Below the pieces are notes generated by a model that was given only the letters and a program-made list of their open reading frames with translations, searched no databases and was not told the origin of the DNA. From positions 12,150-76,149 of the forward strand of contig JBHIDX010000005.1 of NCBI GenBank assembly GCA_046760305.1: a stretch of DNA of 64,000 bases, read 5' to 3'. This document shows, piece by piece, positions 417 through 19,322 of this stretch. A program made the position numbers and the translations under genes. The first letter of the stretch is position 1; every line of letters begins with the position of its first letter. This DNA comes from Candidatus Aminicenantales bacterium (lineage in GTDB: Bacteria; Acidobacteriota; Aminicenantia; Aminicenantales; Aminicenantaceae).

Positions 417-1154
417 ATGACAAGATTACCGATAGCGGCAATGGCTGTTTTCCTCGCTGCTTTTCTTGCGCTGTACGGTCAGCAGAAGTTCGAAGAAGAT
501 GTCATTTCAACCTCTGGCGGTGAGTTAAAGATTGCTTTTATCGGTCATGCAACCCTGATTTTCGAGTTTGGAGGAAAGGTAATCCATGTTGACCCTGTAA
601 GCCGTTATGCTGATTATGGAAAGCTGCCTCGAGCAAACATCATCCTCGTCACTCATGAACACGGTGACCATTTTGACCCGCAAGCAATCTCCCTTATCCG
701 TACTGAAAAAACAGATATTATTCTAACCGAGAAATGTGCGGAGAAGATCAGAGGAGGAACCATAATCAGGAACGGAGAGAGAAGAGTCGTTCAGGGAATT
801 CCGATTGAGGCTGTTCCTGCCTACAACATCGTCCATAAGCGGAGAAGCGGCATTCCCTTTCATCCCAGGGGAGAAGGAAACGGCTACATCATCACTTTTG
901 CTGATAAAAGAGTCTATGTGGCCGGCGATACAGAAAACACCCCTGAAATGAAAAAGATAAAAGATATCGATATTGCCTTCCTGCCCATGAATCTTCCCTA
1001 TACCATGACTCCGGAAATGGTGGCCGATGCAGCTAAAGCCTTCAGGCCTAAAATCCTCTACCCCTATCACTACGGGAACACAGACACCTCCAGGCTTGTC
1101 CTCCTTCTTAAAGACGAAAGAGAGATCGAGGTTCGTATGCGGAAGATGAAATAG
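417..1154 (+). CDS. MBL-fold metallo-hydrolase with N-terminal signal/TM
   Basis: HEHGDHFD motif (HxHxDH metallo-beta-lactamase signature). Hydrophobic N-terminus. RBS-like aaaggagg upstream. Confidence 0.8.
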   Translation: MTRLPIAAMAVFLAAFLALYGQQKFEEDVISTSGGELKIAFIGHATLIFEFGGKVIHVDPVSRYADYGKLPRANIILVTHEHGDHFDPQAISLIRTEKTDIILTEKCAEKIRGGTIIRNGERRVVQGIPIEAVPAYNIVHKRRSGIPFHPRGEGNGYIITFADKRVYVAGDTENTPEMKKIKDIDIAFLPMNLPYTMTPEMVADAAKAFRPKILYPYHYGNTDTSRLVLLLKDEREIEVRMRKMK

Positions 1155-1156
1155 GC

Positions 1157-2710
1157 TCAATCGTTGAGGACTGAGGTCCACAGGTCTTCTCTTATGTAAA
1201 GAACGAGGAGTGTTTCTGGCCTGAGTCCGTAGTATTCAGGCTGATATCTTTTTCCAAGGACAAGATTCAGTTTTTCCGTAAAAGCGGTAGAGGAGATGAT
1301 GAGAGGTACGCCTCGCAGTTCTCCGGCCTCATTCACATCCTGCCAGTATCCCACCCGGCTGAATCCCCTCAGGTACCAGGGAAGAGGCCAGGCTTCATCA
1401 GGTGTGGTTATTATTTTTATCAGCATCCTTTTGCCCTCTGGGTGGTGAAGGGCGACATCATTGATTCTCCTTACCAGGTTCAGAAAATCACGGCTTGTCT
1501 GCGCATAGACATAGGGGTTGCGGGGATCGGATTCATATTTTAAGTTGGCGCGGTAACTCTGAAGGCCAAGGTGAAAAACACCCACACAGAGAGCGGAAAT
1601 AACAACGGTCTGAAAAAGGAGACTTTTTGCCGCTCTCAGAATAAAAGAAACTCCGCAGCCGGCGAGAAGGATGACCCCGAGATAGAAAGGAAGCATATTC
1701 CAGGGAGTTTTGTAAGGAATCAGAGAAAAAGAAACTGTTGTGAAGAGCGTGTAGAAGAAAAGAAACCTGGAGAGTGGGTGGCTGCTGTTTTCTTTACGAG
1801 GTCCAGTCGAGAAAGCAGCCACACATCCAGCAAGAGCCATGCCCAGGATAAGGGCTTCGCTCCACACAGGGCCTGAGCCGTATCGGGAGAGGCCGAGCAT
1901 TTTCAGGTAATAGTACCAGGGATGAGCATGAATTCCAGCCGCTGTCGTTTTCCTAAAATAGGAGAAAAATGCAAGAAAAGAATCCACGAAACCGCCCGGG
2001 TTCCGGAAAAATGATGAGTAAAAAAGAAAGGAGATAGAAAGAGCCACGGTCAAAAATACCGAGAGATGGAGAAAGGATGATTTCAGAGAAATTTTCCCCA
2101 GCGCCTCTTCTCGTGCGGAGGTAAGCCGGGTGAAAACAAGTGAGGCAATAAAGGCGGTGAAGATAATAACGCTCGTTTCTTTAGTGGCATACATCATCCC
2201 GAGGAAAAAGCCGGTGGCGGCTGCCCAACCCAGACTCCTGCTTCGGGCATAACGCCAGCCGCTGGCGATGGCGCCCAGGGCAAAGAAAAAAAGAAGCATC
2301 TCCTGGATGTAGAACCTGCTGTAAAAAACCAGAGCAGGTGAGAGGGCAGCGAAAAGTGCGGAGAAGAAAATCTCTTCTGAATTAAATCCTCCTTTAAAAA
2401 GAAGGAGGAGTAAGATTGCGCCTGTACCGAAGAAGCCTGTTACCAGACGCAGGGTTTTCTCGTTTAAAGCAGCAAATGAACTACCTGAGCTCAGCCAGGC
2501 AAAGGGAATGGTGAGGTAGTAGAGGGTAGGGCCATGGTGTTCATGCTTATCATAGCGGTATTCGCCTTTTTCCAGAAGGTTACCGAATTTGACAGCCTGG
2601 TTAGCTTCGTCGTGATGCATGGGCCGCAGGTCAAGCTTTACCAGCCTGAAAATCAGTGCGGCGCAGAGAACGAGGAGAAAAAAAAGGTAAAAAGTTGTTT
2701 TTTTCTTCAT
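1157..2710 (-). CDS. Polytopic membrane glycosyltransferase, family 39 / ArnT-like (phospholipid-carrier-dependent)
   Basis: About 12 predicted TM helices. The N-terminal loop with R..HHDEANQA..G..L and the YYLT segment is typical of GT39/PMT_2-type enzymes. ATGA start/stop overlap with the upstream discoidin gene. Confidence 0.65.
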   Translation of the reverse strand: MKKKTTFYLFFLLVLCAALIFRLVKLDLRPMHHDEANQAVKFGNLLEKGEYRYDKHEHHGPTLYYLTIPFAWLSSGSSFAALNEKTLRLVTGFFGTGAILLLLLFKGGFNSEEIFFSALFAALSPALVFYSRFYIQEMLLFFFALGAIASGWRYARSRSLGWAAATGFFLGMMYATKETSVIIFTAFIASLVFTRLTSAREEALGKISLKSSFLHLSVFLTVALSISFLFYSSFFRNPGGFVDSFLAFFSYFRKTTAAGIHAHPWYYYLKMLGLSRYGSGPVWSEALILGMALAGCVAAFSTGPRKENSSHPLSRFLFFYTLFTTVSFSLIPYKTPWNMLPFYLGVILLAGCGVSFILRAAKSLLFQTVVISALCVGVFHLGLQSYRANLKYESDPRNPYVYAQTSRDFLNLVRRINDVALHHPEGKRMLIKIITTPDEAWPLPWYLRGFSRVGYWQDVNEAGELRGVPLIISSTAFTEKLNLVLGKRYQPEYYGLRPETLLVLYIREDLWTSVLND

Positions 2711-3393
2711 CTGGCCGCTAAGCCGTAAACCTCCACTTCCACATAGTGGTTCATATCATTTGAAGTGTTTCCCCTGCTGTAGAGCCGCACATATCTTGCC
2801 TTCACTCCCCGGGCGTCGATGAGACGGCCCTCGTATGTTTCTATATATTCTTTGTCCTTTCCGATACCAAGGCCGGCAGAGTTGTCGTGGTCGTTGTTGA
2901 AGAGGGTTGTTACAGCGGTGATAAAGTCCGGATCATCAGAGACCTGGACAATTACATCCCGGTAGACACGGGCCTGGCTGTGGTAGTGCCAGACGAGAAT
3001 GACATGGAGGTTGAAAGATTGCCCGAGATCAATCTGCACCCACTGCACGCCCGGGCCGAGCTCGACGTAATATCCTTCTTCGCCCGATTTTTCCCCATCT
3101 GTCACGTATTCAAGCTCGCCGATAACGGGTTCGGTGTCGCTGGCTGTCACCCTTTTTCCCAGCGAAAGAAGCTCTGTGCCCTGGGGAACAAAGAAAGGCC
3201 CGCGGGGTTTTCCGGTTATTTTTTCAAGGTTCGGGCTTCGGATATTCCTCGGAGTGCCGACAAACATCGGCTTGGGAAGTTCCAGCTTGAGTTCTACTTT
3301 TTTCTTTTCTTCCTGGAGGCTTATTCCTCCTCCTAGAGAAAAAGAGATAAAGAAGACCACCGAAATGATAATAAACAGCATCTTTTTTCTCAT
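2707..3393 (-). CDS. Secreted discoidin (F5/8 type C) domain protein
   Basis: Signal peptide followed by a galactose-binding-like domain. The WVQIDLG...YVRLY...VEVEVYG pattern is characteristic of F5/8-C domains. Confidence 0.6.
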   Translation of the reverse strand: MRKKMLFIIISVVFFISFSLGGGISLQEEKKKVELKLELPKPMFVGTPRNIRSPNLEKITGKPRGPFFVPQGTELLSLGKRVTASDTEPVIGELEYVTDGEKSGEEGYYVELGPGVQWVQIDLGQSFNLHVILVWHYHSQARVYRDVIVQVSDDPDFITAVTTLFNNDHDNSAGLGIGKDKEYIETYEGRLIDARGVKARYVRLYSRGNTSNDMNHYVEVEVYGLAAR

Positions 3394-3403
3394 CCCTCAC
3401 TCC

Positions 3404-4315
3404 TTATTCAAAAACCTCAAACCTTTCAGGGTCGATGATAACCATGGCCCATACCTCTGGATGCTCACAGCAGAAAGCCCTAACCTCTTCGGTACTCATG
3501 GCCATGAAGGCTGTGCTCAGGGCGTCAGAGACTGCGGCCGAAGGGTGTGAGGCCCAGGCAGCAAGATGGCCTGAGGCTGTTTCTCCTTTTCTGGGATCGA
3601 AAATATGGCTTCCCTTGACCTCAGTACCTGAACCGCTCAGGGCCCTGTCCTTGAGCAGAAATTCTTTCTTCATCTTTTTAATTTTCCATTTCCCGCCCAC
3701 TCCTACCATCCATCCCTCTCTCTCAGAAGAATTATGGGCTGGAGAGCCTAGAGCAAGGGCTGTGCTCGTTCCTGCGTGGAGAAGAGCCCGCTCGAGGCCC
3801 CAGTCAGAAACTATTTCCGCTGCTCTATCGAGGGCAAACCCTTTTCCGATTCCGCCGAGGTCAATACAAGCTCCCTGGCCTTCTTCTTTTTTAAAACGAG
3901 GTGAGTACTTCAATCTGAATCCCCTCCAGGTGCGGCTGAGTTCTATTGACTGCAGACTACCAGCCTTATCAACGGGGAGGGCTTTATCTTTTTCCTCTTT
4001 GTATGTTAACAGAGAGGCGAAGGAGATATCAAAAGCTCCCCTGGTTTCAGACCAGATACTGAGTGCTGTTTTTAAACATTCGTATGTTTCGACTCCAATC
4101 ATCAGACTCTGTCCGGGTTTGAGGAGGTTTATCTGGCCTATTTCACTGCAGGGGTCAAACCTGTTGAAGAGTCTCTCGAGTCGGTCAACCTCAGCAAAGA
4201 CGGCCTGTGAAACCTGGCGTGCGTACTCCTCGTCACCGCCTGGGGTCAGGAGCTCAAATGTTGTTGCCATGGAAAAGTGGGAAAAGCGGAGAACTCTGAC
4301 CTCTTTTTTTCTCAT
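3404..4315 (-). CDS. apbE: FAD:protein FMN transferase (ApbE family)
   Basis: ApbE hallmarks MATTFEL, IDLGGIGKGFALD and SGSGTEVKGSHIFDPRKG. Length about 300 aa. Confidence 0.85.
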   Translation of the reverse strand: MRKKEVRVLRFSHFSMATTFELLTPGGDEEYARQVSQAVFAEVDRLERLFNRFDPCSEIGQINLLKPGQSLMIGVETYECLKTALSIWSETRGAFDISFASLLTYKEEKDKALPVDKAGSLQSIELSRTWRGFRLKYSPRFKKEEGQGACIDLGGIGKGFALDRAAEIVSDWGLERALLHAGTSTALALGSPAHNSSEREGWMVGVGGKWKIKKMKKEFLLKDRALSGSGTEVKGSHIFDPRKGETASGHLAAWASHPSAAVSDALSTAFMAMSTEEVRAFCCEHPEVWAMVIIDPERFEVFE

Positions 4316-4959
4316 CCGTGGTTTTCCTCAAAAAACGACAAATAGAAAAAGGCAATGGCTGAAAGCAAGGCAACAAGACCACTGTACTCGTGGGCTCTGA
4401 AAATATCAATCTCAACACTCAGAGCAAAGAGGGGAAGCATGAGGCTTAAGGCGGTTAGGATCTGGGTCAGTCCACACAGAGTAAAAATCCAGAAGGCTGC
4501 ACACAGCCTCAGGCCTGAGGTGCTGGTTTTATCGTCAGGAGACTTTTCATCGAACCTGTAGAAGCGGGCCCTGAGCACGACCACTGCCCCAAGGGAGAGA
4601 GCAAAAAGGCTGCCGAAAAAAACATGCAGCACCAGGAATATGCCTGAGAGCCTCAGACCTCCCACAGCCGGCACCATACCGCTCAGCACCAGGTAGGAGA
4701 AGCTTCCTGCCAGGGTGAAAAAAATCCATCTCTGCTCCCGAGGATAACTGAGCTTGAGCCAGTCTGAGAAGTGCCTCACCGCCTTTTTCCTGCCCTCATT
4801 TTTAAAGAGGTCCGCTGTTGTGCGCCAGAGCCAGGAGGGATAGGTGAGGAGAAAAGACCTTGAATTTCTGACAGCGGAAAATTGTCTTTTTCTGAAACGC
4901 AGGAAGGTGAGGATGAGAAGAAGTCCGAACAAAGAGGCTGCAGTGATAAGGCCGAACAT
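4312..4959 (-). CDS. Polytopic membrane protein with conserved His residues, possibly a b-type haem or quinone-interacting anchor
   Basis: Four to five TM helices with His residues in or near the membrane (LHVFFG, RAHEYSG). ATGA overlap with apbE. Lies immediately downstream of the multihaem cytochrome. Confidence 0.4.
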   Translation of the reverse strand: MFGLITAASLFGLLLILTFLRFRKRQFSAVRNSRSFLLTYPSWLWRTTADLFKNEGRKKAVRHFSDWLKLSYPREQRWIFFTLAGSFSYLVLSGMVPAVGGLRLSGIFLVLHVFFGSLFALSLGAVVVLRARFYRFDEKSPDDKTSTSGLRLCAAFWIFTLCGLTQILTALSLMLPLFALSVEIDIFRAHEYSGLVALLSAIAFFYLSFFEENHG

Positions 4960-4965
4960 GAGGGG

Positions 4966-7296
4966 CTATCTCCTTTTCTCGATGAGTCCTGATAATTTTC
5001 CGATTGACAGTAAGAAGAGGAGGAAAACAACAGTTCCGATCACAGTTGCCGAGATAAAAAGGGCTGTCTTCAGGAGAGGCCTCAGTCTGAAGGAGAGTCC
5101 GAATAATTTCTGGTAAGGTTTGCTGAGGCCCATCAGCGAATGGCCTGAGATCTTAACCGGATTCTGTATTTTAAGCGCTCCCACTGCTCTTACCTTATGA
5201 AAAAAAAACGATGAGTTTGCTGAGTGACAGTCCCTGCAGCCGCTGCTTCCCAGGGACTGCTGGGCTGGCCGCACGTGGTGAGCCAGAGGCCAGACAACAG
5301 GCCCTGCTGCCCTGTGTTTGAGTGAGATGAGATCTCCTTCAGGGCCCAGCCTGAACATCCTCCCTCCGGAGACATAGAAAAAGAAAGAGGAGGGGGAAGA
5401 AGCGCTGTTTTTTTTCTGCCGGGAAAGAGAATCGAGGATGAGTTTTACCTGTTCTTCAGTGAGCGTATATTCTGTGCCCACAGTAGAAACAACTGTCCTC
5501 ACCTGGAAATTTGAGACAAGGGGCATTGTCCCTTCTTTAACCACCCAGACCAACTCCGGGTAATCTTTTGCTTTCCTGGGCGCTGGCTTCTTTTCAAGAT
5601 AGCCATCCTTAATCACGTAGAGCACATCTCGGCACAGCAGGGCAGGAGGGCCAGGGACTTCCTCCATTTTTTCCAGAGCGTCGAGCACGCTGAGGATGAT
5701 TTCCTCCACCCCAGCCTCTGATTCCTCGCTTTTGGGGTCGAACTGAGGGATTAAAGGACTTATTTTTCCTTCTTTCTTTACTCCCCACCAGGTATCAGCT
5801 CTTAAAGGCTGCGGCACAAGAGAAGAGACGTCAAGCCTGCCATCCACATTCGGCTCGTAAGCTTTTCCCCTGGCGACAAAAACCGGGATTCCCTCAAGCT
5901 CAGCGTAGAGGGCAAGAGCAGTGAGGATACGCACCACTTGCTCCTCGGCATAAAGAATATCTCCACCAGCCTGGCGTATGTCTGAGGGTGGGAGGAGCGT
6001 AATTTTTTCCCCATCCGAGAGGCCCCAGAAAGCGGGCCACATTAATCGGTGGGGATGGATTTTACCTGAACTATCTTTTAGATAAACAGGCTCGAAGATG
6101 TAGGGCATTTCGGTCGACCAGCGGGCAATGCCGTAAATACCGAGACGATTAGCACGCGAGGTGCGCACTCTCACTGGACTCTTGGCCGGTCTGAAGCCAG
6201 CGTGGCACACAGTGCAGGATAGCCTCTCGAAATGCACAGCCGGAATTCCCCGATGACGCGGATAGGGTGCACCCAGCCGTCCGGTTTCGGAACGACTCTT
6301 CCTGGCCAAGTTCCTTCCCATGTGACATCCCTGGCAGGTGAATTCAGCCGCATCCTCCCTTCCGTAGCCAGCATATTCTGCCTCATAGCCGCGTATCATG
6401 TTATGACTTATGTCATTTCGGTGGCAGTCTACACATTCCTTTCCAGCGGCTGAATGAACATCTTCTACGGCTGTGAATTTTTTCGACCCTGCTCTTGAGA
6501 CTGAGTGACAGGTAAGGCATCGGCTGTCATCAGGTTCTCCGCTGATGTCAAAGAACACACGATGCTGGCTGTCAAAGTGCCAGGTTTTGTACCTTACATA
6601 GGGAACAACAGCCCATTCTGTATCATCAGGATTTGGCCCGTCGATTATATCCCATGTATCTGGAAGGCGGGAGGCCATGCCTCCTACCTCCCCCAGGCCT
6701 GAAGCAGCCGTTGCTGCCCAGCGGAAATTCTGGCGGAGCACCTGTTTGGCCCATTCACTGTGGCTCTGGATCCTGGAGGCGTTATGGCAGGCCATGCAGT
6801 TTATTTCAAGTTTTCCAGAAACATTCCAGCGGGATTCAGGGCTCACTTCCTCACTCGGCTCACCAACTCCACCGCCTGCCATGTGTCTTCCGAAAAGGAG
6901 AGTGAAATTCCAGGGACTCAGCCCTACATCCTCGGGATTCCATACTCCTGGCCAGTTATGGTAGGAGAGGGGAAGGATGGTTCCTGTTTTTGGCTCAACC
7001 CAGACCCATGGCTCTCCTGGCCGACCGTCCTCAGGAGAGGAAGAAGCATTGAAGTGAAGACCCTGGTTGATAAGCTCATAGTCATGACAGGGGGCACAGG
7101 TAAAGCGGGTTGAATAAGGCAGGGGGTAAGGAAGGGTGGGAACGATGAGCTGGTCAAACTCATCCCTGAGTTGAATGAGGTGAACCGGGGTGGTACGGCT
7201 TCCATCCCAAGCCTTGGTTTTCTGTTGACACAACAATGTGCTCCCATCCACAACAAGGGGAAAGAAAAGGATGAGATAAATAAATTTTTTTTTCAT
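4966..7296 (-). CDS. Multihaem c-type cytochrome (7 CxxCH) with N-terminal signal peptide and C-terminal TM anchor
   Basis: CxxCH motifs CAPCH, CMACH, CLTCH, CVDCH, CQGCH, CTVCH and CRDCH. Cleavable signal peptide. Hydrophobic C-terminal helix. Start overlaps (ATGA) the stop of the upstream Gfo/Idh/MocA gene. Confidence 0.85.
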   Translation of the reverse strand: MKKKFIYLILFFPLVVDGSTLLCQQKTKAWDGSRTTPVHLIQLRDEFDQLIVPTLPYPLPYSTRFTCAPCHDYELINQGLHFNASSSPEDGRPGEPWVWVEPKTGTILPLSYHNWPGVWNPEDVGLSPWNFTLLFGRHMAGGGVGEPSEEVSPESRWNVSGKLEINCMACHNASRIQSHSEWAKQVLRQNFRWAATAASGLGEVGGMASRLPDTWDIIDGPNPDDTEWAVVPYVRYKTWHFDSQHRVFFDISGEPDDSRCLTCHSVSRAGSKKFTAVEDVHSAAGKECVDCHRNDISHNMIRGYEAEYAGYGREDAAEFTCQGCHMGRNLARKSRSETGRLGAPYPRHRGIPAVHFERLSCTVCHAGFRPAKSPVRVRTSRANRLGIYGIARWSTEMPYIFEPVYLKDSSGKIHPHRLMWPAFWGLSDGEKITLLPPSDIRQAGGDILYAEEQVVRILTALALYAELEGIPVFVARGKAYEPNVDGRLDVSSLVPQPLRADTWWGVKKEGKISPLIPQFDPKSEESEAGVEEIILSVLDALEKMEEVPGPPALLCRDVLYVIKDGYLEKKPAPRKAKDYPELVWVVKEGTMPLVSNFQVRTVVSTVGTEYTLTEEQVKLILDSLSRQKKNSASSPSSFFFYVSGGRMFRLGPEGDLISLKHRAAGPVVWPLAHHVRPAQQSLGSSGCRDCHSANSSFFFHKVRAVGALKIQNPVKISGHSLMGLSKPYQKLFGLSFRLRPLLKTALFISATVIGTVVFLLFLLSIGKLSGLIEKRR

Positions 7297-8663
7297 GTTC
7301 GAAAATGCTCTGGCCGGAATTTAAACATGCGTCTGTTTTTAACCACCTCGTTAGCCTTAAGCACAGCTACGGCTGTTTCATACCCCACTTCAGCCGGGCA
7401 GTTCAGCGGTGTGCCGTGGATGATGGCGTTGAAGAAATTTTCAAGATGTGGCTGGTGAGGCGGCTTTGCCAGCTCCACGGGCAGAGGCCATCGTCCCGCC
7501 TCAGCCGTCACTCTCACATCGAGGAAAATGTTCTTTGTCTCCAGTTTCTGAAGAGGAGGTTTTTCGGATTTGAGAAGTCCGAGCCTCACCAGAGAATCCC
7601 ATTCAGGCGCATGTGCTTCCCGCATAGCCCAGTTTCCCCTTTGAGGCACTTCGGAAATGACGAGGGAACCGTTATCTCCCATGAAGGCTTCGTAAAAACC
7701 CCCATGCTTGGTCGTGGTCTGAACCTGGTAGAAGGCACGTACACACCGCTCACCTGTCTCAAACTCGTAGATGGTCATGACATTGTCATACCATTCCCTG
7801 TCCGGGTAGTAATCGCGTCCGCCGCTGGCTATTACTGCCGATGGGTTTTTTCTCATCACCCAGCTGAAGAGGTCTATCTGATGTGAACCGAGGTCAACCA
7901 GGGGACCTCCGCCGTATTTTTTAAACCAGCGCCAGTTTCTGAACTCAACCATGGAGCGGTAGCCGTATTTGGCGAGTTTTTCTGGGCTGATGGTGTATTT
8001 TTTCGGCCAGCCGAGCATGTCGCTCCTGGCTCGGCACCACTGGGCATAGAGGGATGTAATCTGTCCGAGAAGCTTATGTTCATGGATAAGGCGTTCGATG
8101 GCGTGGATGTAGCGGGGATTGCTGCGGCGCTGGTGCCCGATCTGGAGAAGTTTTCCTGTCCTACGAGCTGTCTCGACCATCGACCTCGCCTTTTCGAGGG
8201 AGTTGGACATCTCTTTCTCGCAGTAGACATGGAGCCCTGCTTCAAGACAGGCGTCAGTGTGTTCGGCATGCATCCAATCAGGGGTGGCGACGATGACAGC
8301 ATCGAGGTTCTTTTCGCTGGTAAGCATCTCCCTGTAGTCCTCGTAGACATTCACCTCGTAGCCGTATTTTTTGAGGTACTGACTTGCATACCTCTGGCTG
8401 TATTCCCAGATGTCGCATACAGCTACAATCTGCACCGTGGGGATGCGGAGGCATGAGTCGATTAAAACCCTGCCCTGTACCCCGGCGCCGATGATGGCCA
8501 CTGCCAGCTCGGCTGATTTCTTCTTCTGCGGAGCGCTTCCTCCCGGAGGACGGACAGCCGCCTTTCCAGCCAGGGCAACGCCAAGGCTGGCCGAGGCCGA
8601 GCTTTTGAGAAAATCCCTTCTTGTCAATTTTCTTATCTTACCCTTATTTTTTAAGCTGGACAT
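7293..8663 (-). CDS. Tat-exported Gfo/Idh/MocA family oxidoreductase (glycoside 3-dehydrogenase-like)
   Basis: Twin-arginine signal TRRDFLKSSASASLGVALA. Rossmann motif IGAGVQG. Gfo/Idh/MocA C-terminal domain. Confidence 0.85.
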   Translation of the reverse strand: MSSLKNKGKIRKLTRRDFLKSSASASLGVALAGKAAVRPPGGSAPQKKKSAELAVAIIGAGVQGRVLIDSCLRIPTVQIVAVCDIWEYSQRYASQYLKKYGYEVNVYEDYREMLTSEKNLDAVIVATPDWMHAEHTDACLEAGLHVYCEKEMSNSLEKARSMVETARRTGKLLQIGHQRRSNPRYIHAIERLIHEHKLLGQITSLYAQWCRARSDMLGWPKKYTISPEKLAKYGYRSMVEFRNWRWFKKYGGGPLVDLGSHQIDLFSWVMRKNPSAVIASGGRDYYPDREWYDNVMTIYEFETGERCVRAFYQVQTTTKHGGFYEAFMGDNGSLVISEVPQRGNWAMREAHAPEWDSLVRLGLLKSEKPPLQKLETKNIFLDVRVTAEAGRWPLPVELAKPPHQPHLENFFNAIIHGTPLNCPAEVGYETAVAVLKANEVVKNRRMFKFRPEHFRT

Positions 8664-8687
8664 TTTCCCCTTCTTTATATTTTGAGT

Positions 8688-9677
8688 TTATTTTTTCATT
8701 TCTTTATCGAAGGCAATCTCTGAAGGAGAAAAGTTTATGCTTCTTATGAATTCGAGCGATTCCTGGGCACCGAATTCACGCTCCATTCCGTTGTCTTCCC
8801 ACTCAACTGAGAGAGGGCCTTCGTATCCTATCTCATTCAGGGCCCGGATTATTTCCTCGAAGTTAACGTCACCATGTCCCAGGGAGCGGAAATTCCATCC
8901 CCGCCTTATGTCACCAAAGGGGAGATGGGAGCCGAGAATTCCAGCTTTTCCGTCCAGGTTGAGAGCCACATCCTTCATGTGGGTGTGGTAGATGCGCTCA
9001 GGGAATTCGAGGATGAAGAGATGAGGCTCCATTCCCTGCCAGAGAAGGTGGCTGGGGTCAAAGTTAAGTCCGAGTGTTGGTCTGTGGTCAAAGACCTCGA
9101 AGAGGCGCTTTGTTGTGTAGAGGTCAAAAGCAATTTCAGTCGGATGGACCTCGAGGCCGAATTTTACCCCGCAGCGCTCGAACTCATCAAGAATTGGCGT
9201 CCAGAGCTCGTGAATCTTCCTGAACCCTTCTTCGACCATTTCCTCGGTTGTGGGCGGGAAAGAATACCAGAACTTCCAGATCGGAGAGCCCATGAAACCG
9301 TTGACCACCGAACAGCCCATGTTTCTGGCAGCTCTGGCCGTATGCTTCATCTCCTCGATGGCCCATTCGCGGATCCGGTCGGGTTTACCCTTCACCTCCT
9401 CAGGCACAAACACATCCAGACGCTCGTCATACCTGTCGCCGACACACTGACCGGCAAGATGGGCGCCCAGGGCCCAGCATCTCAGATTGTTTTTTTCGAG
9501 CATCTTCTTTTTTCCCTTTACATAATCCCCGTCTTCAGATGCTTTGCGCACCTCCATGTGGTCTCCCCAGCAGGCGATTTCCAGGCCCTCATAGCCCCAG
9601 CTGCCGGCTTTCTTGCACATCTCAGTAAAAGGCAGATCCGCCCACTGGCCTGTAAATAAGGTCACAGGTCTTGCCAT
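8688..9677 (-). CDS. Sugar phosphate isomerase/epimerase (xylose-isomerase-like TIM barrel)
   Basis: AP-endonuclease-2 / xylose-isomerase-like fold signatures (GYEGLEI, HxKD, EWED). Start set at the internal ATG at 9677, which has aaggagg 7 nt upstream; the longer ORF would overlap the next gene by 46 bp. Confidence 0.8.
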   Translation of the reverse strand: MARPVTLFTGQWADLPFTEMCKKAGSWGYEGLEIACWGDHMEVRKASEDGDYVKGKKKMLEKNNLRCWALGAHLAGQCVGDRYDERLDVFVPEEVKGKPDRIREWAIEEMKHTARAARNMGCSVVNGFMGSPIWKFWYSFPPTTEEMVEEGFRKIHELWTPILDEFERCGVKFGLEVHPTEIAFDLYTTKRLFEVFDHRPTLGLNFDPSHLLWQGMEPHLFILEFPERIYHTHMKDVALNLDGKAGILGSHLPFGDIRRGWNFRSLGHGDVNFEEIIRALNEIGYEGPLSVEWEDNGMEREFGAQESLEFIRSINFSPSEIAFDKEMKK

Positions 9678-9700
9678 GGCTTCCTCCTTGGTATGAATGA

Positions 9701-10873
9701 TTAAAAATCTATCCAAACAGCGCCTTTTTTGGAACTCTCGACGCACTTTTCGATGAACTTCACACCGCGCACTCCCTCCTCGACGTGGGGATAATCCAGC
9801 TCTTCTTCGCTCAGCGATTCGCCTCTAAGCTTTTTGCTCAGAGCCTGACAGAAGGTGGAGTAAATGTTGGCGAAGGCTTCAAAATACCCCTCCGGGTGAC
9901 CGGCAGGGATGCGTGAGAAGCTCTGGGCCTGGGGGTAAAGAGTGTCGCGTCCGCGTGAAATTATTTCAGCAGGCCTTTCCAGGTAACAAATACGGGCATA
10001 ATTGGGATTTTCCTGGCACCATTCGAGCGAACCTCTGGTTCCGTAGATTCTGACTCTGAGTCCGTTGTCGTGGCCGACTGCGATCTGTGAACTCCAGTAA
10101 AGGCCTTTTGCTCCACCTTCATAGTTAACAAGAATTGAAGCGTTGTCATCCAGCACTCTACCCTCGACAAAAGTGTCAAGGCGGGCGCAGAGCGAGCTGA
10201 TCTTCAATCCGCTGAGATAAGAAACCATGTTCTCAATATGACTCCCGATGTCTCCGACACAGTTTGAGATACCCGAGCGGGAAGGGTCTGTTCTCCATTC
10301 AGCCTGCTTCTGACCTGTTTTCTCCAGCGCGGTGCTCAACCATTCCTGGGGATATTCAGCGTTAACGAACCTGATGTTTCCCAGCTCTCCCTTAGCAACC
10401 ATTTCTCTCAAATGCTTGACCAGTGGATAACCTGTGTAGGTGTAAGTGACGCAGAAAAGAAGTCCTTTTTCCCCCGAGAGACGCTCGAGCTCCTCTGCTT
10501 CCTTGCTGCTGGTAGTGAGTGGCTTATCGCATACAACGTGAAAATCATGCTCGAGAGCAAGTCTGGAGATAGAATAGTGTGAATCATTAGGGGTGACGAT
10601 GACCACGAAGTCAATCCCATCCTCCCGTCCTGCTTCTTTGCGGAACATTTCTTCAAAGGAAGAGTAAAGACGCTCCTCGTCCAGTCCAAGGCTTTTCCCG
10701 GTGGCGAGAGTGTTTTCATAATTCCTCGAAAAACAACCGGCAACCAGCTTTGCCTTGCCGTCCATGGCAATTGCCTTGCGGTGCACATCTCCGATGAAGG
10801 CACCCTGGCCGCCGCCGACCATGCCGTAGGTGAGCGTGGTCTTCCCCTTACCGCTTGCACTTGCCTCGATCAT
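9701..10873 (-). CDS. Gfo/Idh/MocA family oxidoreductase (cytoplasmic, no signal peptide)
   Basis: GMVGGGQGAFIG Rossmann motif and family-typical C-terminal domain. No Tat or Sec signal. Confidence 0.85.
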   Translation of the reverse strand: MIEASASGKGKTTLTYGMVGGGQGAFIGDVHRKAIAMDGKAKLVAGCFSRNYENTLATGKSLGLDEERLYSSFEEMFRKEAGREDGIDFVVIVTPNDSHYSISRLALEHDFHVVCDKPLTTSSKEAEELERLSGEKGLLFCVTYTYTGYPLVKHLREMVAKGELGNIRFVNAEYPQEWLSTALEKTGQKQAEWRTDPSRSGISNCVGDIGSHIENMVSYLSGLKISSLCARLDTFVEGRVLDDNASILVNYEGGAKGLYWSSQIAVGHDNGLRVRIYGTRGSLEWCQENPNYARICYLERPAEIISRGRDTLYPQAQSFSRIPAGHPEGYFEAFANIYSTFCQALSKKLRGESLSEEELDYPHVEEGVRGVKFIEKCVESSKKGAVWIDF

Positions 10874-10895
10874 GGACCACCTCCTTTTTATGTTC

Positions 10896-13721
10896 TCATT
10901 TTTTTAACTCTTTTTCTATCTTTTCCACAGCAGCTCTAGCCTCCTCCTCCACTCCTTCCTCTTCAACCAGGGAGCGGGCGAACTCAAGCGCCTCCTGGCA
11001 GGGAAAGATAGGTAGAATGCTGAGCACCAGCTTTTTTTCCTCCATCCGTGCCAATCCCATGGTGTTTTTAAGCTCCCTGACTGCATGTTGTGGCAAGCGG
11101 TAGGGCTCAAGGCCAATCATCCTGATGTAGGCTCTAAGGGCGAGGAACTTGAGGACTTTGTTTTTTAATTTCAGGCTCAACTCGAGCAGGTCTTCTTTTG
11201 GAGTGGTGGTAGGCCAGTCAGCCAGAGCACGTATGGCAGCCTCTCTTTCTTCAGGCGTCCCACTTGACACAGCCCTGCGGAGAGAGGGGAGAGAGCTCTC
11301 ATCTCCAATTCTGCCCAGAACTCTGAGCAGAGCGCAGCGGTCGCTTATGTCCGCTGTTGAATCAAGCGCTTCCACCACTGGCCGTGCGCGGCCAGGCCCT
11401 CCTTTTTGCTTTCCAGCCACAGCAGCAATTGTGTTGGCCATTTCTTCTCGTTCTTTTTCCTGAGTTGAAGCAAGCATTATATCTACCAGATGTGGAAGGT
11501 GGGCAGGAGTGGCAATGTTTTTAAGAGATTTTATGGCCTGAAGCCGGATTTCAGCCTCTGAGAAGCGAGCCCGGGAAAGAAGTAGGCTTATCCCCTCCTT
11601 AATCCGTCGTTCGCCGATGGAGCGGATAAGCTCCTGCCGAACACGTGGGTCAGGCAGTTTAATAAGGTTTAAGAGAATCGCTCTCTCAACTTCTTTCCCG
11701 GGCAGCCAGTCGAGGCTTTCCCGGGCCGCCTTCTTTTCTTCTCCAGAACTCAGCGCAGCGCCACGGGCAAGGAGTTCTACGGTGGAGTAGTCACCGAGAG
11801 TTTTAAGGGCTCTTAAGGCAGCTACCCTCACCTCCTTTTGCTTGCTCTGTGCCGCCTGGACAACGGATGAGAGCACTCCAGGTTTGCGGTAGCCGGAGAG
11901 AACTTCGAGCAGCATGACCTGGCTTGAAGGGGGGAGAGAGGGAAGCAGAGCGCTTACAGCCTCTATATTTTCGAGGTCAAAAAAATCCCTGATGAGGGTT
12001 ATAGCTGGTTGGTGCCATTCGATATTCTTTCCTTCCAGTGCTCTGATTATTATCTCCGAGGCGTTAGCGGCCGAAGATATTTTTCCTCTCATGGCAGCCT
12101 GACGAAGGTTGAGGGGAAGTTTCGAGGATATGAGTGCTTCATACATTCTTGAAGCTTCCTCGCTCTTCCCGGCTTCAAGGCGGTTCTCGGCACATTTAAG
12201 CACAGAAGAAGCAACGACTGCTTTTACTTCGCCTGAGGTTTTGTTCATATTTTTGAGGAGAAATTCTGCTGCCTGCGCAGTTCCCACCTGGCCCATCGCT
12301 CTGGCAGCAGCAGCGGCTGTCTCAGGCTGAGCGCCGCGGAGCAGCTTTGAAAGCTGAGGCAGCGAATTCTCAGACTTTCTGTTTCCCAGAGAAGAGATGA
12401 TACCCAGCCTCACTTTCCCTCTGCTTTTTGAAAGCGCCTTTATGAGTGCCTTGGCTGCATCCTGACCGGGAATTTTTTCTAGAGCATACCTTGCAATGTC
12501 AGACGTTTGGAGATGAAGCAGCATTTTCTCCAGCCAAGGAACAGAGAGCGAGGTGCCGATTTCTCTTAACTGCCGCGAGGCTGCCATTTTTGCTGCCAGG
12601 GTAGCATCTGACGCAAGAAAATGGGCAAGGCGTGTCTCACATTCTGCTCTGGATTGAGGTGAATTGCGGTGAGCTCTCACATAGTCCCTGAGCCGGGAGA
12701 GTATTTCTTCGTCCTGACCGTATTCGTAGCTGGCAAGCTCTTTTAGTATTTCCTCCAGCCTCTCAGGCCTGAAATTCTTCCATCGCCTGACATCATCAGG
12801 AGTGCCCGATTCGCGGTAGAGAGCTGGAAAATCTCCTGGTACTTTCTGGGTTACGCTGCCCGTGGCTGCCCATTCTGCACCGCGCTGGAAAGTGACGATA
12901 AAGCCCACGCATTCCATCGATGGGGGATGTTTTTCTCCCATGGCATGGCCAAGGACTGTATGGAAGATTCTCCCCTTACCATACCTGACCGTGAAAAGCA
13001 CTGGTTCATGCCTCCCTGTTCCCAGCTGAGCAGGGTCGCTGTAGGCTGTGGCCAGGACATGAACCTCTTCAGCCGGCCCGCGCAGGAGACTGTAGAGTTC
13101 GTCTCTGGCATGCATCCATCTCTCAGGCAGTCCCCTGGTGATAGGATGAGAGGAGTCACGGTTGACGACCACAAAAGCGTGCTGGTAGCCGTGGTAGCCG
13201 GCAATCCCGGGACTCTTATCCCTGACAATTCTCCCCTTTTCCCAGTAGAGATAGGGTCCGGTAGATTCATCGCGGTTTCCCCATCCCCCTAGCCCTATGA
13301 TTCTGTTGTATTCCTTCCACTGGGGGAAAGAATTGTCAGCCGCGTGGTAGACGACAACACCTCCACCCTGTCTGACATAGCGAACAAATGCCTCCTGGGT
13401 AGAAGAAGACCAGGCATCTCCGTTGTAATCGAGGACAACTACCTGGTAGGAGTCAAACTCGGGCCTGAAAAGGGACATGTCCTTTCCCCTGGGAGGGCTG
13501 GCCGCCACCTCCACCTCAAACATACCCGTCTCCTCTAATATCTTTTTAAGGATGGAGCTGCTTGTCTTCCAGTCGTGATTGTTCTGTCCCGTGACAATCA
13601 GTGCCTTAAGAGAAGAGGCTGAAAGTGGTGAAGAAAAGGATGCCCAAAAGAGAAGGGCCAGGATAATGGGGGTGAGAATGAATTTTGTTTTTTTTGCTTT
13701 TTTTATGCCCATTTTATTCAC
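10896..13721 (-). CDS. Secreted ThuA-like domain protein fused to a long HEAT/PBS-lyase repeat region
   Basis: Sec signal. N-terminal ThuA (trehalose-utilisation, GATase1-like) pattern ALIVTG..H.......VVVLDYNGD......GGGVVVYHAADNSF. C-terminal 600 aa of HEAT-like repeats (ARYALEKIPG, RVRQELIRSIG). No CxxCH. Confidence 0.75.
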   Translation of the reverse strand: MNKMGIKKAKKTKFILTPIILALLFWASFSSPLSASSLKALIVTGQNNHDWKTSSSILKKILEETGMFEVEVAASPPRGKDMSLFRPEFDSYQVVVLDYNGDAWSSSTQEAFVRYVRQGGGVVVYHAADNSFPQWKEYNRIIGLGGWGNRDESTGPYLYWEKGRIVRDKSPGIAGYHGYQHAFVVVNRDSSHPITRGLPERWMHARDELYSLLRGPAEEVHVLATAYSDPAQLGTGRHEPVLFTVRYGKGRIFHTVLGHAMGEKHPPSMECVGFIVTFQRGAEWAATGSVTQKVPGDFPALYRESGTPDDVRRWKNFRPERLEEILKELASYEYGQDEEILSRLRDYVRAHRNSPQSRAECETRLAHFLASDATLAAKMAASRQLREIGTSLSVPWLEKMLLHLQTSDIARYALEKIPGQDAAKALIKALSKSRGKVRLGIISSLGNRKSENSLPQLSKLLRGAQPETAAAAARAMGQVGTAQAAEFLLKNMNKTSGEVKAVVASSVLKCAENRLEAGKSEEASRMYEALISSKLPLNLRQAAMRGKISSAANASEIIIRALEGKNIEWHQPAITLIRDFFDLENIEAVSALLPSLPPSSQVMLLEVLSGYRKPGVLSSVVQAAQSKQKEVRVAALRALKTLGDYSTVELLARGAALSSGEEKKAARESLDWLPGKEVERAILLNLIKLPDPRVRQELIRSIGERRIKEGISLLLSRARFSEAEIRLQAIKSLKNIATPAHLPHLVDIMLASTQEKEREEMANTIAAVAGKQKGGPGRARPVVEALDSTADISDRCALLRVLGRIGDESSLPSLRRAVSSGTPEEREAAIRALADWPTTTPKEDLLELSLKLKNKVLKFLALRAYIRMIGLEPYRLPQHAVRELKNTMGLARMEEKKLVLSILPIFPCQEALEFARSLVEEEGVEEEARAAVEKIEKELKK

Positions 13722-13739
13722 CTTTTGACGCTCGTTTTC

Positions 13740-15044
13740 TCAGAGGCCGAGCTGCCAGGGACTCCTGTAGGAGCGTCCTAGCAGGCGCGCTGCCTCCGCA
13801 TCGCCGATAATTTCCTCCTTTTCCGGATTAAAACGAATCTTGCGCCCCAGTTCCATGGCTATCCCACCCAGATGACCGACACTTGCTGAGCGGTGGGCGA
13901 CTTCGATCGGAGTTATCGTCTGCCTCCTGCTTTTCACGCAGTCGAGAAAATTCTGGTAGTGGTCCCTGCTTCTGTAGAGACGAATCTCATTCGGTCCGAT
14001 TCGTTCATTGAGAATCTCCTGAGGATGAGCCTCAAGTCCTCCTCGGTTAACCCAGATCCACCCGTATTCTCCTATCCATTTTGTGCCAGGTCGAATCTCT
14101 TCGTGTCCGCCCGCAATATCCATCGGCGTGCCGTCTGCGTACCTGGCTTTAAGGTAGTAACGGGTGGGACTGTTCCACACGCCCCGCCTCGGGAATTCGC
14201 CCCAGCCCTCGATCTCAACAGGTCCGGTGAGGTCAAAACCCAGACCCCAGTGAGCAATGTCGACATGATGGCCGACCCAGTCCATGAGCTGGCCGCCGCC
14301 AAAATCCATGACCCAGCGCCAGTTCCTGTGCACCTTTGCCGGACAGTAAGGCGAATAGGGAGCAGGTCCCACCCAGAAATCATAATCGAGTTCTGAGGGA
14401 GGAGGCCCTATTTTCTCCTGCCCTTTTGTCCCGGCAAAGTCATAGTGACCTGATGGAAGTCCAACCTCGACTTTGAGAATCTTCCCCATGCGGCCGTTGC
14501 GGACGAGCTCGCAGGCGTGATGGAAGTTTTCCACTGAGCGCTGCCAGCTTCCTGTCTGCCAGATGCGGCTGTAGCGCTTTACTGCCTCACACATTGCTCG
14601 ACCCTCGAGGAGGCTGTGGGAGAGAGGCTTTTCGCCGTAAATATCAAATCCTGCGCGGGCACACTCGATAGCAGGAATGGCATGCCAGTGGTCTGGCAGA
14701 GCGATGGAGACAGCATCTATGTCAGTTCGCTGGCAGAGCTCCCTGAAATCCTTGTAGGTGGCACAGTCTCTGTTGCCGTACTTCTGGTTTACGATATCCC
14801 GGGCTTGGCGCAGGTGGTTTTCGTCCACGTCACACACTGCTACCCATTGAACCTCCTTTTTTTCCAGGAAGGCTTTCATGTTGGGAATGCCCATCATGCC
14901 AAAGCCGATGCCGGCCATGACGATGCGGTTGGAAGGAGGAACAGCCTTTCCCTTCCCCAGTACCGGAGAGGGAATGATGGCAGGAGCGGCAAAAGTTCCG
15001 GCCGCTGCCAGGGAAAGCTTTTTCAAAAAATCTCTTCTCTTCAT
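13740..15044 (-). CDS. Tat-exported Gfo/Idh/MocA family oxidoreductase
   Basis: Twin-arginine signal KRRDFLKKLSLAAAG. GIGFGMMG Rossmann motif. Gfo/Idh/MocA C-terminal domain. Confidence 0.85.
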   Translation of the reverse strand: MKRRDFLKKLSLAAAGTFAAPAIIPSPVLGKGKAVPPSNRIVMAGIGFGMMGIPNMKAFLEKKEVQWVAVCDVDENHLRQARDIVNQKYGNRDCATYKDFRELCQRTDIDAVSIALPDHWHAIPAIECARAGFDIYGEKPLSHSLLEGRAMCEAVKRYSRIWQTGSWQRSVENFHHACELVRNGRMGKILKVEVGLPSGHYDFAGTKGQEKIGPPPSELDYDFWVGPAPYSPYCPAKVHRNWRWVMDFGGGQLMDWVGHHVDIAHWGLGFDLTGPVEIEGWGEFPRRGVWNSPTRYYLKARYADGTPMDIAGGHEEIRPGTKWIGEYGWIWVNRGGLEAHPQEILNERIGPNEIRLYRSRDHYQNFLDCVKSRRQTITPIEVAHRSASVGHLGGIAMELGRKIRFNPEKEEIIGDAEAARLLGRSYRSPWQLGL

Positions 15045-17866: not shown

Positions 17867-19322
17867 CTTTATACCTCAAGAGGTCAGTCCTTCCCCTCAA
17901 CTCGCCGATATTTTTTAAACCGAGTCGGTAAAGTATAAGCTTTAGCTGCTTCTGCCAGGAAGCATAGAGATTGATGATGCGCTGTGCACCCCACGAGGGC
18001 TCTATCTGTGTTTCGAGTTCAGAGTCAGTGGTGGCAATTCCCCGCGGACATCCCTTGCCGCTCTCACAGTTTCCGCAGCGAACGCAGCCCAGGGCTACAA
18101 GTTCCGCTGTTCCGATTATCACCCCGTCTGCTCCGAGCGCGATTGATTTGGCGATATCGTAGGCATTCCGGATTCCTCCGCTGGCCATGAGAACCACCTC
18201 GTCGCGCACTCCCTCTTCGATGAGGAATCTGTGTACCTTGGTAATGGCGTATTCGATGGGCATGGCGATATTCTTTTTGGCAATCTCAGGTGCAGCTCCA
18301 GTTCCTCCGTATCCTCCGTCAAGGTTGATGATGTTTGCTCCAGCGTAGTAGCTTCCCACAGCCACCATGTCAACGTCGACTGGAGTTGAAACTTTGACCG
18401 AGATTATGGCATCGGGATTGATTGTTTTTACCCAGTCAAGATGCTTTTTGTGGTCTTCAACTGAGTAGACACTGTGAAAGGGAAAAGGAGAAAAAAGGGA
18501 GGTCCAGGCAACTGCCTCTCTCATCCCGGCGACAACAGGCGTATTTTTATCTCCGAGTAAATGGCCTCCCAACCCCGGCTTTGCTCCCTGTGCGTACTTG
18601 AACTCGATAATCCTTGCTCTTTTTATTGTCTCCTCCCGCACTCCGAACATACCGGTGGCTATCTGGGTGATGATATGGTTCTGGTAGGGAACCAATTCTT
18701 CAGGATAGCCGCCTTCACCCGTTGAGGTAAAAGTTCCCCAGCTCTTGGCAGCTTCTGCCCGTGAAAGCATGGTGGGCAGGCTTATCGAGCCAAAGGACAT
18801 GCCAGCACCATACCAGGGGATGGGGATAACAATTTTCGCTCCTTCTTCTCTTCTGTTTAGAGAGAGTGAAGTGTCAACCGCAGAAAGGTCTTCTTCAGCT
18901 TCTCGAGCGTTCCATTTAAAATCGAAAACATCAAATCCCCCTCCTGAGTCGCCGAAACGATGTTCGAAACAGTCAGGGGGCAGTTCCCCTCTTTCTGCTT
19001 CAAGCCAGGTACTGAGAATGAGATCCTGCGTCCAGCGGTAGTCTCCGAGCGACTTCCACTGGGGATCAGCTTCGATGGAAATGGCATCCACAGGGCATTT
19101 TCTCCTGCAGAAGTAGGCACCAGACGCACAGTCAGCTCCCCTGCAGAAAGAAGAGCGGAGGGGAAGGACAAAGTTTGTACCTTCTGTTCTTTCGAAAACA
19201 CGATGGGGACAGATGTCAACACAGAGCCCGCAGTGAAAGCATTCAGGACTGAGGGAGACTTTATATTTCCCGATTTGGTAAAGAAAACGGGAAGGACAGT
19301 AGCTTGCTCTGGCTTCCTTCAT
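17856..19322 (-). CDS. Glutamate-synthase FMN-binding (GltB central) domain protein with N-terminal 2x[4Fe-4S] ferredoxin domain (archaeal-type)
   Basis: CGLCVDICP and CRRKCP cluster motifs. LDGGYGGTGAAP FMN/substrate signature. C-terminal CVRCGNCESGKGCP. Confidence 0.8.
   Translation of the reverse strand: MKEARASYCPSRFLYQIGKYKVSLSPECFHCGLCVDICPHRVFERTEGTNFVLPLRSSFCRGADCASGAYFCRRKCPVDAISIEADPQWKSLGDYRWTQDLILSTWLEAERGELPPDCFEHRFGDSGGGFDVFDFKWNAREAEEDLSAVDTSLSLNRREEGAKIVIPIPWYGAGMSFGSISLPTMLSRAEAAKSWGTFTSTGEGGYPEELVPYQNHIITQIATGMFGVREETIKRARIIEFKYAQGAKPGLGGHLLGDKNTPVVAGMREAVAWTSLFSPFPFHSVYSVEDHKKHLDWVKTINPDAIISVKVSTPVDVDMVAVGSYYAGANIINLDGGYGGTGAAPEIAKKNIAMPIEYAITKVHRFLIEEGVRDEVVLMASGGIRNAYDIAKSIALGADGVIIGTAELVALGCVRCGNCESGKGCPRGIATTDSELETQIEPSWGAQRIINLYASWQKQLKLILYRLGLKNIGELRGRTDLLRYKDGK

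Follow-up and report, generated by a model that had tools for sequence, protein, structure and literature searches.

The window analysed here, a stretch of 64,000 nucleotides of contig JBHIDX010000005.1 from Candidatus Aminicenantales bacterium, holds ten minus-strand genes that follow one another with near-zero spacing from position 1157 to 15044, as laid out in its list of open reading frames (ORFs). Within this string stands a heptahaem cytochrome c, encoded between the genes of a Gfo/Idh/MocA-type dehydrogenase exported by the twin-arginine translocation (Tat) pathway and of a small membrane protein related to cytochrome b, and followed by an ApbE flavin transferase, a CBM32-like protein and a GT-C-type membrane protein. 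In the order of transcription, the members of this module are:

7293-8663, minus strand: Tat-exported nicotinamide adenine dinucleotide (phosphate) (NAD(P))-type dehydrogenase of the Gfo/Idh/MocA family, 456 aa, the presumed catalytic subunit
4966-7296, minus strand: heptahaem cytochrome c, 776 aa, with a signal peptide, seven CxxCH motifs and a C-terminal transmembrane (TM) anchor
4312-4959, minus strand: FdnI/HydC-like membrane cytochrome b relative, 215 aa, five predicted TM segments, one conserved His pair
3404-4315, minus strand: ApbE-family flavin adenine dinucleotide (FAD):protein flavin mononucleotide (FMN) transferase, 303 aa (Pfam PF02424), without a signal peptide
2707-3393, minus strand: secreted CBM32/F5-8 type C-like protein, 228 aa (Pfam F5_F8_type_C)
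1157-2710, minus strand: GT-C-type (PMT_2 / TIGR03663 Agl23-like) polytopic membrane protein, 517 aa, matching TIGR03663 and PMT_2

From the dehydrogenase to the GT-C gene, the gaps between neighbours measure -4, +6, -4, +10 and -4 nt. The first contact is an ATGA at 7293-7296, where the ATG of the cytochrome overlaps the stop of the dehydrogenase gene, and the same arrangement joins the start of ApbE to the stop of the membrane-protein gene and the start of the GT-C gene to the stop of the CBM32-like gene. The cytochrome and the 215-aa protein are encoded by separate genes with 6 nt between them. A preliminary description of the interval 3404-7296 had already recorded the overlap at 7293-7296, the signal peptide, CxxCH motifs and membrane anchor of the cytochrome, the Tat-exported dehydrogenase upstream and the identity of ApbE; the ORF coordinates, the layout of the 776-aa cytochrome, the TRRDFLK motif of the dehydrogenase and the match of ApbE to PF02424 (E 9.6e-37) bear these points out. 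The conserved unit is larger than that interval and takes in the CBM32-like (2707-3393) and GT-C (1157-2710) genes as well.

Conservation and fusion of the module genes

We fetched 95 related loci and sorted their ORFs by comparison with the proteins of the window; the denominators vary, with only those loci counted that hold enough sequence. A dehydrogenase gene of the 456-aa type lies immediately 5' of the cytochrome in 57 of 60 loci, and a homologue of the membrane protein lies 3' of it in 83 of 87, the four exceptions being the fusions in L008, L014 and L030 and a locus (L006) without a membrane protein between cytochrome and ApbE. ApbE is present in 60/69 loci, and the CBM32-like and GT-C genes are present in 45/53. 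Aminicenantes, Planctomycetota and Lentisphaerota share the order Gfo–cytochrome–cytochrome b–ApbE–CBM32-like–GT-C; in Lentisphaerota, Sedimentisphaerales and Pirellulales, whose cytochromes are 41-43% identical to that of the window, an optional ApbE stands either after cytochrome b or at the end, behind the GT-C gene.

Shorter versions of the module also occur. In L048, L062 and L076 (~52% cytochrome identity), the operon stops after the membrane protein, with no ApbE, CBM32-like or GT-C gene nearby, and some loci, such as L002 and L037, have ApbE without the CBM32-like and GT-C genes. The latter two are found only alongside ApbE in every locus with enough downstream sequence. A GT2 gene (~240 aa), which by its N-terminal motifs possibly encodes a polyprenyl-phosphate sugar synthase, lies 3' of the GT-C gene in ~18 of 48 related loci, for example at 16490-17230 of L001 (PF00535) and at 16163-16903 of L004. 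A 470-aa protein occupies this position in ~11 other loci. The window has no GT2 there; beyond its GT-C gene stands a divergent gene for a metallo-beta-lactamase-fold protein (417-1154, plus strand).

The genes for the two cytochromes are not always separate. They are fused into a single polypeptide at 4537-7500 of L008, 3008-5314 of L014 and 406-3201 of L030, and the same fusion is found in 45 of 150 cluster representatives, with split and fused forms side by side in one family. The fusion in relatives is strong evidence that cytochrome c and cytochrome b act as one unit. Together with the adjacency counts for dehydrogenase and membrane protein, and with their spread over three phyla, it upholds the earlier view of dehydrogenase, cytochrome and membrane protein as a single unit. 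Neither an outer-membrane conduit nor any further cytochrome gene lies in the neighbourhood, and literature searches returned no account of such a module or of similar cytochromes from Aminicenantes.

Haem ligands and protein families

The cytochrome contains exactly seven CxxCH motifs, at residues 67, 167, 260, 288, 321, 361 and 687. Its N-terminus is hydrophobic (residues 4-24), and residues 740-774 form a C-terminal TM segment. The motifs are not a product of chance: none of the seven varies among the 27 diverse homologues of an alignment, and 124 of the 150 best cluster representatives have exactly seven. The same alignment contains exactly seven further invariant His (39, 81, 281, 298, 348, 355 and 673), and the cytochrome has no CxxCK. 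Because these seven His outside the motifs match the number of haems, all seven haems appear to be bis-His electron-transfer haems. The family core, as defined by the family profile, covers ~620 positions; a haem-free alpha/beta insertion at about residues 445-600 is specific to this lineage and missing from the Planctomycete versions.

This cytochrome family is previously undescribed and has no solved or curated relative. More than 1,400 matches in a 90%-identity collection all bear the names 'cytochrome c3 family' or 'hypothetical', and at 50% identity the cytochrome matches 738 clusters, 335 of them with E < 1e-30. An NCBIfam scan gave three weak matches, all far sub-threshold (nanowire_3heme, ExtO and ExtN). 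The PDB contains no sequence relative, and nothing significant came from a Foldseek comparison of the whole-chain model with its entries. The one structural relative known is 1sp3, of octahaem tetrathionate reductase (OTR) type from Shewanella, and the family profile matches NrfA. The haem core is a distant relative of the NrfA/OTR superfamily that lacks its hallmark CxxCK. Unlike 1sp3 and the NrfA superfamily, with their eight or five haems, the window cytochrome has seven, all of them bound by CxxCH and accompanied by seven invariant distal-type His, and it adds a C-terminal TM anchor and the large alpha/beta insertion.

The 215-aa membrane protein is probably a degenerate FdnI/HydC-type cytochrome b in which only the ligands of the periplasm-side haem are left. 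A word-indexed search with this protein found only itself, and its homologues were taken from the neighbouring genes in the fetched loci. PF01292 ('prokaryotic cytochrome b561') matches the window protein alone with 21.7 bits against a cut-off of 30.1 (E 1.9e-4); 12 of 26 family members match it individually, the best with E 1.6e-20. The profile of the 26-member family matches a single PDB family, that of FdnI, the gamma subunit of formate dehydrogenase-N (1kqf_C, PF01292; E 7e-5), which is the sole solved protein matched. Four His are present, of which only H112 and H190 are conserved (68/68 homologues). This periplasm-side pair is kept in 69 of 71 family sequences. The cytoplasm-side pair is complete, making up all four His, in only 6 of the 71, and the window protein has Phe at both of its positions. 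All four FdnI-type His are found in L011 and L013, two Planctomycete members, including the pair spaced 14 residues apart in the last helix. Under the positive-inside rule, the long basic loop (13 K+R) should be cytoplasmic, and H112 and H190 should lie near the periplasmic face.

Several differences set the family apart from FdnI. The window protein and most of its relatives have no cytoplasm-side haem ligands, hence no FdnI-type menaquinone site; the window family has an extra N-terminal TM helix and the basic cytoplasmic loop; and the partner is a multihaem cytochrome, not an iron-sulfur (Fe-S) subunit. The preliminary description had called the protein His-rich and had looked to dihaem b-type anchors for its relatives. 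Four His in 215 residues, two of them conserved, do not fit the first term, and of the second the b-type anchor survives in the FdnI relationship and the dihaem part falls with the single conserved His pair.

The 456-aa dehydrogenase matches the N-terminal GFO_IDH_MocA domain (PF01408, E 1.3e-21) and the C-terminal domains PF22725 and PF02894, and it carries the motifs TRRDFLK (Tat) and GAGVQG (Rossmann) as well as CEKEM and DLGSHQID, which are typical of this family. An Ala-rich hydrophobic stretch follows TRRDFLK, and two profiles for Tat signals score slightly below their cut-offs (TAT_signal, 21.4 vs 22.7; TIGR01409, 16.6 vs 16.7). Among solved structures, it is closest to DgpA, a C-glycoside 3-oxidase (E 2e-21), and to the glucuronide 3-dehydrogenase 8tdi and glycoside 3-dehydrogenases. 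NF058561, the equivalog profile of the BT_2158 glycoside 3-dehydrogenase, reaches 100.5 bits against a cut-off of 750 and aligns over profile positions 1-266 of 487 only. The enzyme shares its fold, NAD(P) motifs, Tat signal and pairing with a xylose-isomerase-like TIM-barrel gene with GFOR, BT2158 and DgpA, none of which is described with a dedicated cytochrome partner. DgpA/DgpBC and ThuAB are the established basis for comparison with 3-keto-glycoside pathways, and the TIM-barrel and ThuA-type genes upstream of the module would fit a pathway of this type.

ApbE matches PF02424 with 127 bits against a cut-off of 25.6, and its best solved relative is TM1553 (1vrm, E 1.2e-12). It has the motifs GGIGKG, SHIFDP and SDALSTA, whose conservation across 57 module ApbEs is 95% or more. 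We take them to be, respectively, the GGxxKG FAD loop, the SHxxDP motif with its His and the DAxxT metal site of other ApbE proteins; with these catalytic motifs intact, the enzyme looks active. The ApbE domain starts near residue 10, no upstream extension of the ORF is possible, and the window protein has neither a signal peptide nor a hydrophobic segment. The module ApbEs of Aminicenantes, Lentisphaerota and Planctomycetota have no signal peptide either, and all begin alike. The 120 closest homologues, from a search that returned close Aminicenantes orthologues only, are 293-322 aa long. Antisense to ApbE runs a low-complexity, Ser/Pro/Arg-rich ORF of 321 aa (3435-4400, plus strand), which is most likely spurious.

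The CBM32-like protein (F5_F8_type_C, 30.8 bits; weak profile match to the AlyQ CBM32) is the most conserved protein of the module, with a mean column identity of 58%; its counterparts in Planctomycetes and Lentisphaerota are 54-57% identical to it. An extended stretch at the N-terminus, LxLPKPMFxGTP, does not vary at all, and clusters of likewise invariant His, Asp and Glu (WHxH, NNDxD and NHYxExE) suggest a ligand or metal site. The GT-C protein matches TIGR03663 with 208 bits, above the cut-off of 126 (E 1.6e-61), as well as Pfam PMT_2, and a HHDEA motif is conserved in its first loop.

A candidate electron route and its rivals

We propose, with a probability of roughly one half, that the dehydrogenase and the two cytochromes form a membrane-anchored periplasmic complex that draws off the electrons released when glycosides are oxidised in the periplasm. 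The Tat-exported Gfo/Idh/MocA enzyme, with NAD(P) bound, would oxidise a periplasmic glycoside or sugar; judging by its Gfo relatives, the group oxidised would be a ring hydroxyl, as in 3-keto-glycoside pathways. Electrons would flow from this enzyme to the heptahaem cytochrome, with the hydride on NAD(P)H presumably passed on as single electrons. The cytochrome's own C-terminal helix would anchor it in the membrane, together with its FdnI/HydC-derived cytochrome b partner, which in this lineage would retain the periplasm-side haem only. From this haem b, electrons would leave into the membrane carrier pool, presumably with quinone as the acceptor. The preliminary description had likewise proposed an electron exit from periplasmic sugar oxidation; its linked unit stands, and the quinone pool or an external acceptor would be the presumed end point of the route.

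Systems in which a periplasmic dehydrogenase is connected to cytochrome c and b subunits are known. In fructose dehydrogenase, glucoside 3-dehydrogenase and LacABC, electrons from periplasmic sugar oxidation reach the respiratory chain through a haem c subunit, as proposed here, and an FAD-containing catalytic subunit solves the two- to one-electron problem. The catalytic subunit here, unlike theirs, is a Rossmann enzyme that depends on nicotinamide and lacks a flavin site. What is new is the use of a nicotinamide-dependent Gfo/Idh/MocA protein as catalytic subunit, the cytochrome family without solved or curated relatives and an FdnI derivative reduced to one haem, along with a co-conserved cytoplasmic ApbE that has no recognisable substrate and a co-conserved pair of CBM32-like and GT-C proteins.

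Tat-exported Gfo/Idh/MocA enzymes are very common in polysaccharide-degrading bacteria, among them Bacteroidota, Planctomycetota, Verrucomicrobiota and Aminicenantes. What oxidises the bound cofactor of BT2158 is, according to its authors, not known, an acknowledged gap for Tat-exported Gfo-type glycoside dehydrogenases (PMC8121099). A cytochrome c/b partner conserved in three phyla would be a testable answer to the question of what re-oxidises tightly bound periplasmic NAD(P)H, and, if true, such anaerobes would conserve energy from sugar oxidation outside the cytoplasm.

The following observations weigh against this proposal:

(i) L014 and L015, which carry the deepest-branching and most divergent cytochrome homologues, have no neighbouring Gfo gene.

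(ii) Other 3-keto-glycoside pathways are also redox-neutral and require no external acceptor. The related GFOR works by a redox-neutral ping-pong mechanism, in which one sugar is oxidised as another is reduced (as cited in PMC8121099).

(iii) With the cytoplasm-side haem absent from the membrane protein, the FdnI-type quinone site is gone, and coupling to quinone is uncertain.

(iv) NAD(P)H is a hydride donor, whereas the haems take up one electron at a time. A flavin adaptor would be chemically attractive, and no flavin, quinone or Fe-S site for the two-electron to one-electron step was found.

(v) ApbE has no signal peptide in any lineage looked at and is, for this reason, a cytoplasmic enzyme, which cannot act on proteins that are already exported. 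The expectation that it flavinylates extracytoplasmic proteins is not borne out.

(vi) A search by regular expression for the ApbE target motif Dxx[ST]G[AS][ST] found none in the ten operon proteins, and among the ORFs of at least 100 aa in the 95 loci it returned three scattered chance matches and otherwise nothing. Nor is there a consistent site of this or of the shorter [ST]G[AS][ST] type in the operon proteins, the ORFs of the window or those of the 95 loci, and the 150 cytochrome representatives have no consistent flavinylation site. The conserved Ser and Thr of the Gfo, GT-C, CBM32 and cytochrome b families stand in no ApbE-like context. The flavinylated partner envisaged in the preliminary description fails that description's own check for a target motif, while the conserved His pair of the membrane protein, on which that description had also relied, does exist.

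The architecture of the c and b pair allows a different role, which we hold unlikely. The pair may be a CbcL/MtoC-like quinol oxidase or quinone reductase that connects the menaquinone pool with a periplasmic or extracellular partner, or an OTR-like terminal reductase of a small molecule, with the Gfo enzyme merely co-regulated. CbcL, MtrH and MtoC of Geobacter and others combine a periplasmic multihaem c domain with an FdnI/HydC-like b domain and about six TM segments in all, and this architecture occurs in 15 phyla, including Planctomycetes and Lentisphaerae (PMC6295460). The likeness is one of architecture, and the six TM segments here are made up of one from the cytochrome and five from the membrane protein. 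A CbcL-like role agrees with the frequency of c–b fusions (45/150), an OTR-like role agrees with 1sp3 as the only structural relative and with the NrfA match of the family profile, and the L014 and L015 cytochromes, with no Gfo gene beside them, would fit either. However, the Gfo gene adjoins the cytochrome in 57/60 loci with a 4-nt start/stop overlap, the seven invariant non-motif His for seven haems and the lack of CxxCK argue against an open catalytic haem, and the neighbourhood holds no outer-membrane conduit or extra cytochrome genes. CbcL itself has nine haem motifs confined to its N-terminal half, whereas the seven haems here are widely spaced over a ~620-aa core. Unlike CbcL, MtrH and MtoC, the window also has its c and b components in separate genes, the b domain has a single His pair, and the linkage is to a Tat-exported sugar dehydrogenase, not to extracellular electron-transfer conduits.

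Less probable still is that the Gfo enzyme is redox-neutral and needs no acceptor, in which case the cytochrome, cytochrome b, ApbE, CBM32-like and GT-C proteins would constitute a separate envelope module, for instance a redox-dependent or glycosylation-linked one, that shares the operon. Ping-pong catalysis on bound NADP is established for GFOR and proposed for BT2158 (PMC8121099), and the CBM32-like, GT-C and often GT2 genes suggest glycosylation, with no obvious link to electron transfer. Against this, dehydrogenase and cytochrome genes that had no function in common would hardly be expected to keep their 4-nt overlap and to stay adjacent in three phyla.

With the ApbE-dependent extracytosolic flavinylation systems (Meheust et al. 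2021, PMC8238504), the module shares an ApbE in an operon with extracytosolic redox proteins and a transmembrane electron carrier. It differs from them in that its ApbE has no export signal and no [S/T]GA[S/T] substrate (FMN_bind, DUF2271, DUF3570 or NqrB/RnfD-like) accompanies it. It is an orphan ApbE in the terms of these authors, whose survey leaves substrates of ApbE unidentified (PMC8238504), and as such it offers a clean test case for undiscovered flavinylation substrates. The enzyme may supply the flavin adaptor by some route, or it may serve something else.

One non-canonical route would complement the proposed dehydrogenase:cytochrome complex, and we regard it as a long shot. The cytoplasmic ApbE would attach FMN covalently, before or independently of export, at a non-canonical site. 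Its target would be the Gfo enzyme, a Tat passenger that is folded before export, or else a cytoplasmic loop of the membrane proteins or a cytoplasmic face of the cytochrome b complex. The result would be a periplasmic NAD(P)H-to-FMN-to-haem chain. Tat passengers fold and take up their cofactors in the cytoplasm, ApbE retains intact catalytic motifs and is co-conserved with the cytochrome and cytochrome b (60/69 loci), even where the CBM32-like and GT-C genes are missing (L002 and L037), and a flavin is the obvious chemical adaptor that the chain lacks. On the other side, no protein of the module has an [ST]G[AS][ST] site, the conserved Ser and Thr of Gfo sit in ordinary Rossmann and catalytic motifs, and L048, L062 and L076 have Gfo, cytochrome and cytochrome b with no ApbE nearby. 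To our knowledge, no flavinylated Tat passenger has been described. If true, this would be the first, with a new ApbE recognition motif, and it would provide the missing link by which nicotinamide-dependent periplasmic sugar dehydrogenases feed the respiratory chain. A further idea, that ApbE makes a polyprenyl-phospho-flavin donor for the GT-C protein, was dropped: the usual companion of the GT-C gene is an ordinary GT2, a pairing that speaks for conventional glycosylation, and a ribityl phosphate ester is not an activated glycosyl donor.

Upstream and flanking genes

The remaining four genes of the string lie upstream of the module, here listed from its first gene onwards:

13740-15044, minus strand: Tat-signal Gfo/Idh/MocA protein, 434 aa, of GFO_IDH_MocA_C2 type and ThuB-like; member of the upstream pair
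10896-13721, minus strand: secreted ThuA-HEAT protein, 941 aa, a ThuA domain fused to ~600 aa of HEAT repeats; member of the upstream pair
9701-10873, minus strand: cytoplasmic Gfo/Idh/MocA oxidoreductase, 390 aa, often found in the upstream part of the operon
8688-9677, minus strand: cytoplasmic xylose-isomerase-like TIM barrel, ~329 aa (Pfam AP_endonuc_2, E 1.7e-41)

The TIM-barrel gene stands upstream of the dehydrogenase gene in most Aminicenantes-type loci. Its longest ORF begins with GTG (8688-9746, 352 aa) and overlaps the preceding gene by 46 nt; the true start is probably the internal ATG at ~9677 (MARPVTL), since homologues measure 329-330 aa. The gaps on either side of the ThuA-HEAT gene, where it adjoins the 434-aa Tat-signal Gfo gene and the next gene downstream, are 18 and 22 nt, and the pair formed by these two proteins is found again in many related loci. 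The core module can be separated from the genes that precede it in the string, since in L001, from the complete Aminicenantes genome CP070750.1, an insertion at 2817-6188 separates the ThuA-HEAT gene from the gene of the cytoplasmic Gfo protein. The insertion holds a PhdYeFM/ParE toxin-antitoxin pair and an 880-aa DUF5916 protein.

A scan for promoters and terminators gave consensus-level hints only: ahead of the first gene, positions 15226-15197 match a -35/-10 pattern, and a hairpin spans 1175-1156, where the last gene ends. Farther upstream (15434-22505, minus strand) lies a split glutamate-synthase-like set of mutually overlapping genes. It comprises an 810-aa protein that combines amidotransferase and GXGXG parts, two Glu_synthase FMN-domain proteins (488 and 466 aa) with N-terminal 4Fe-4S motifs, and a 601-aa FAD_binding_4/FAD-oxidase protein with a C-terminal Fe-S domain.

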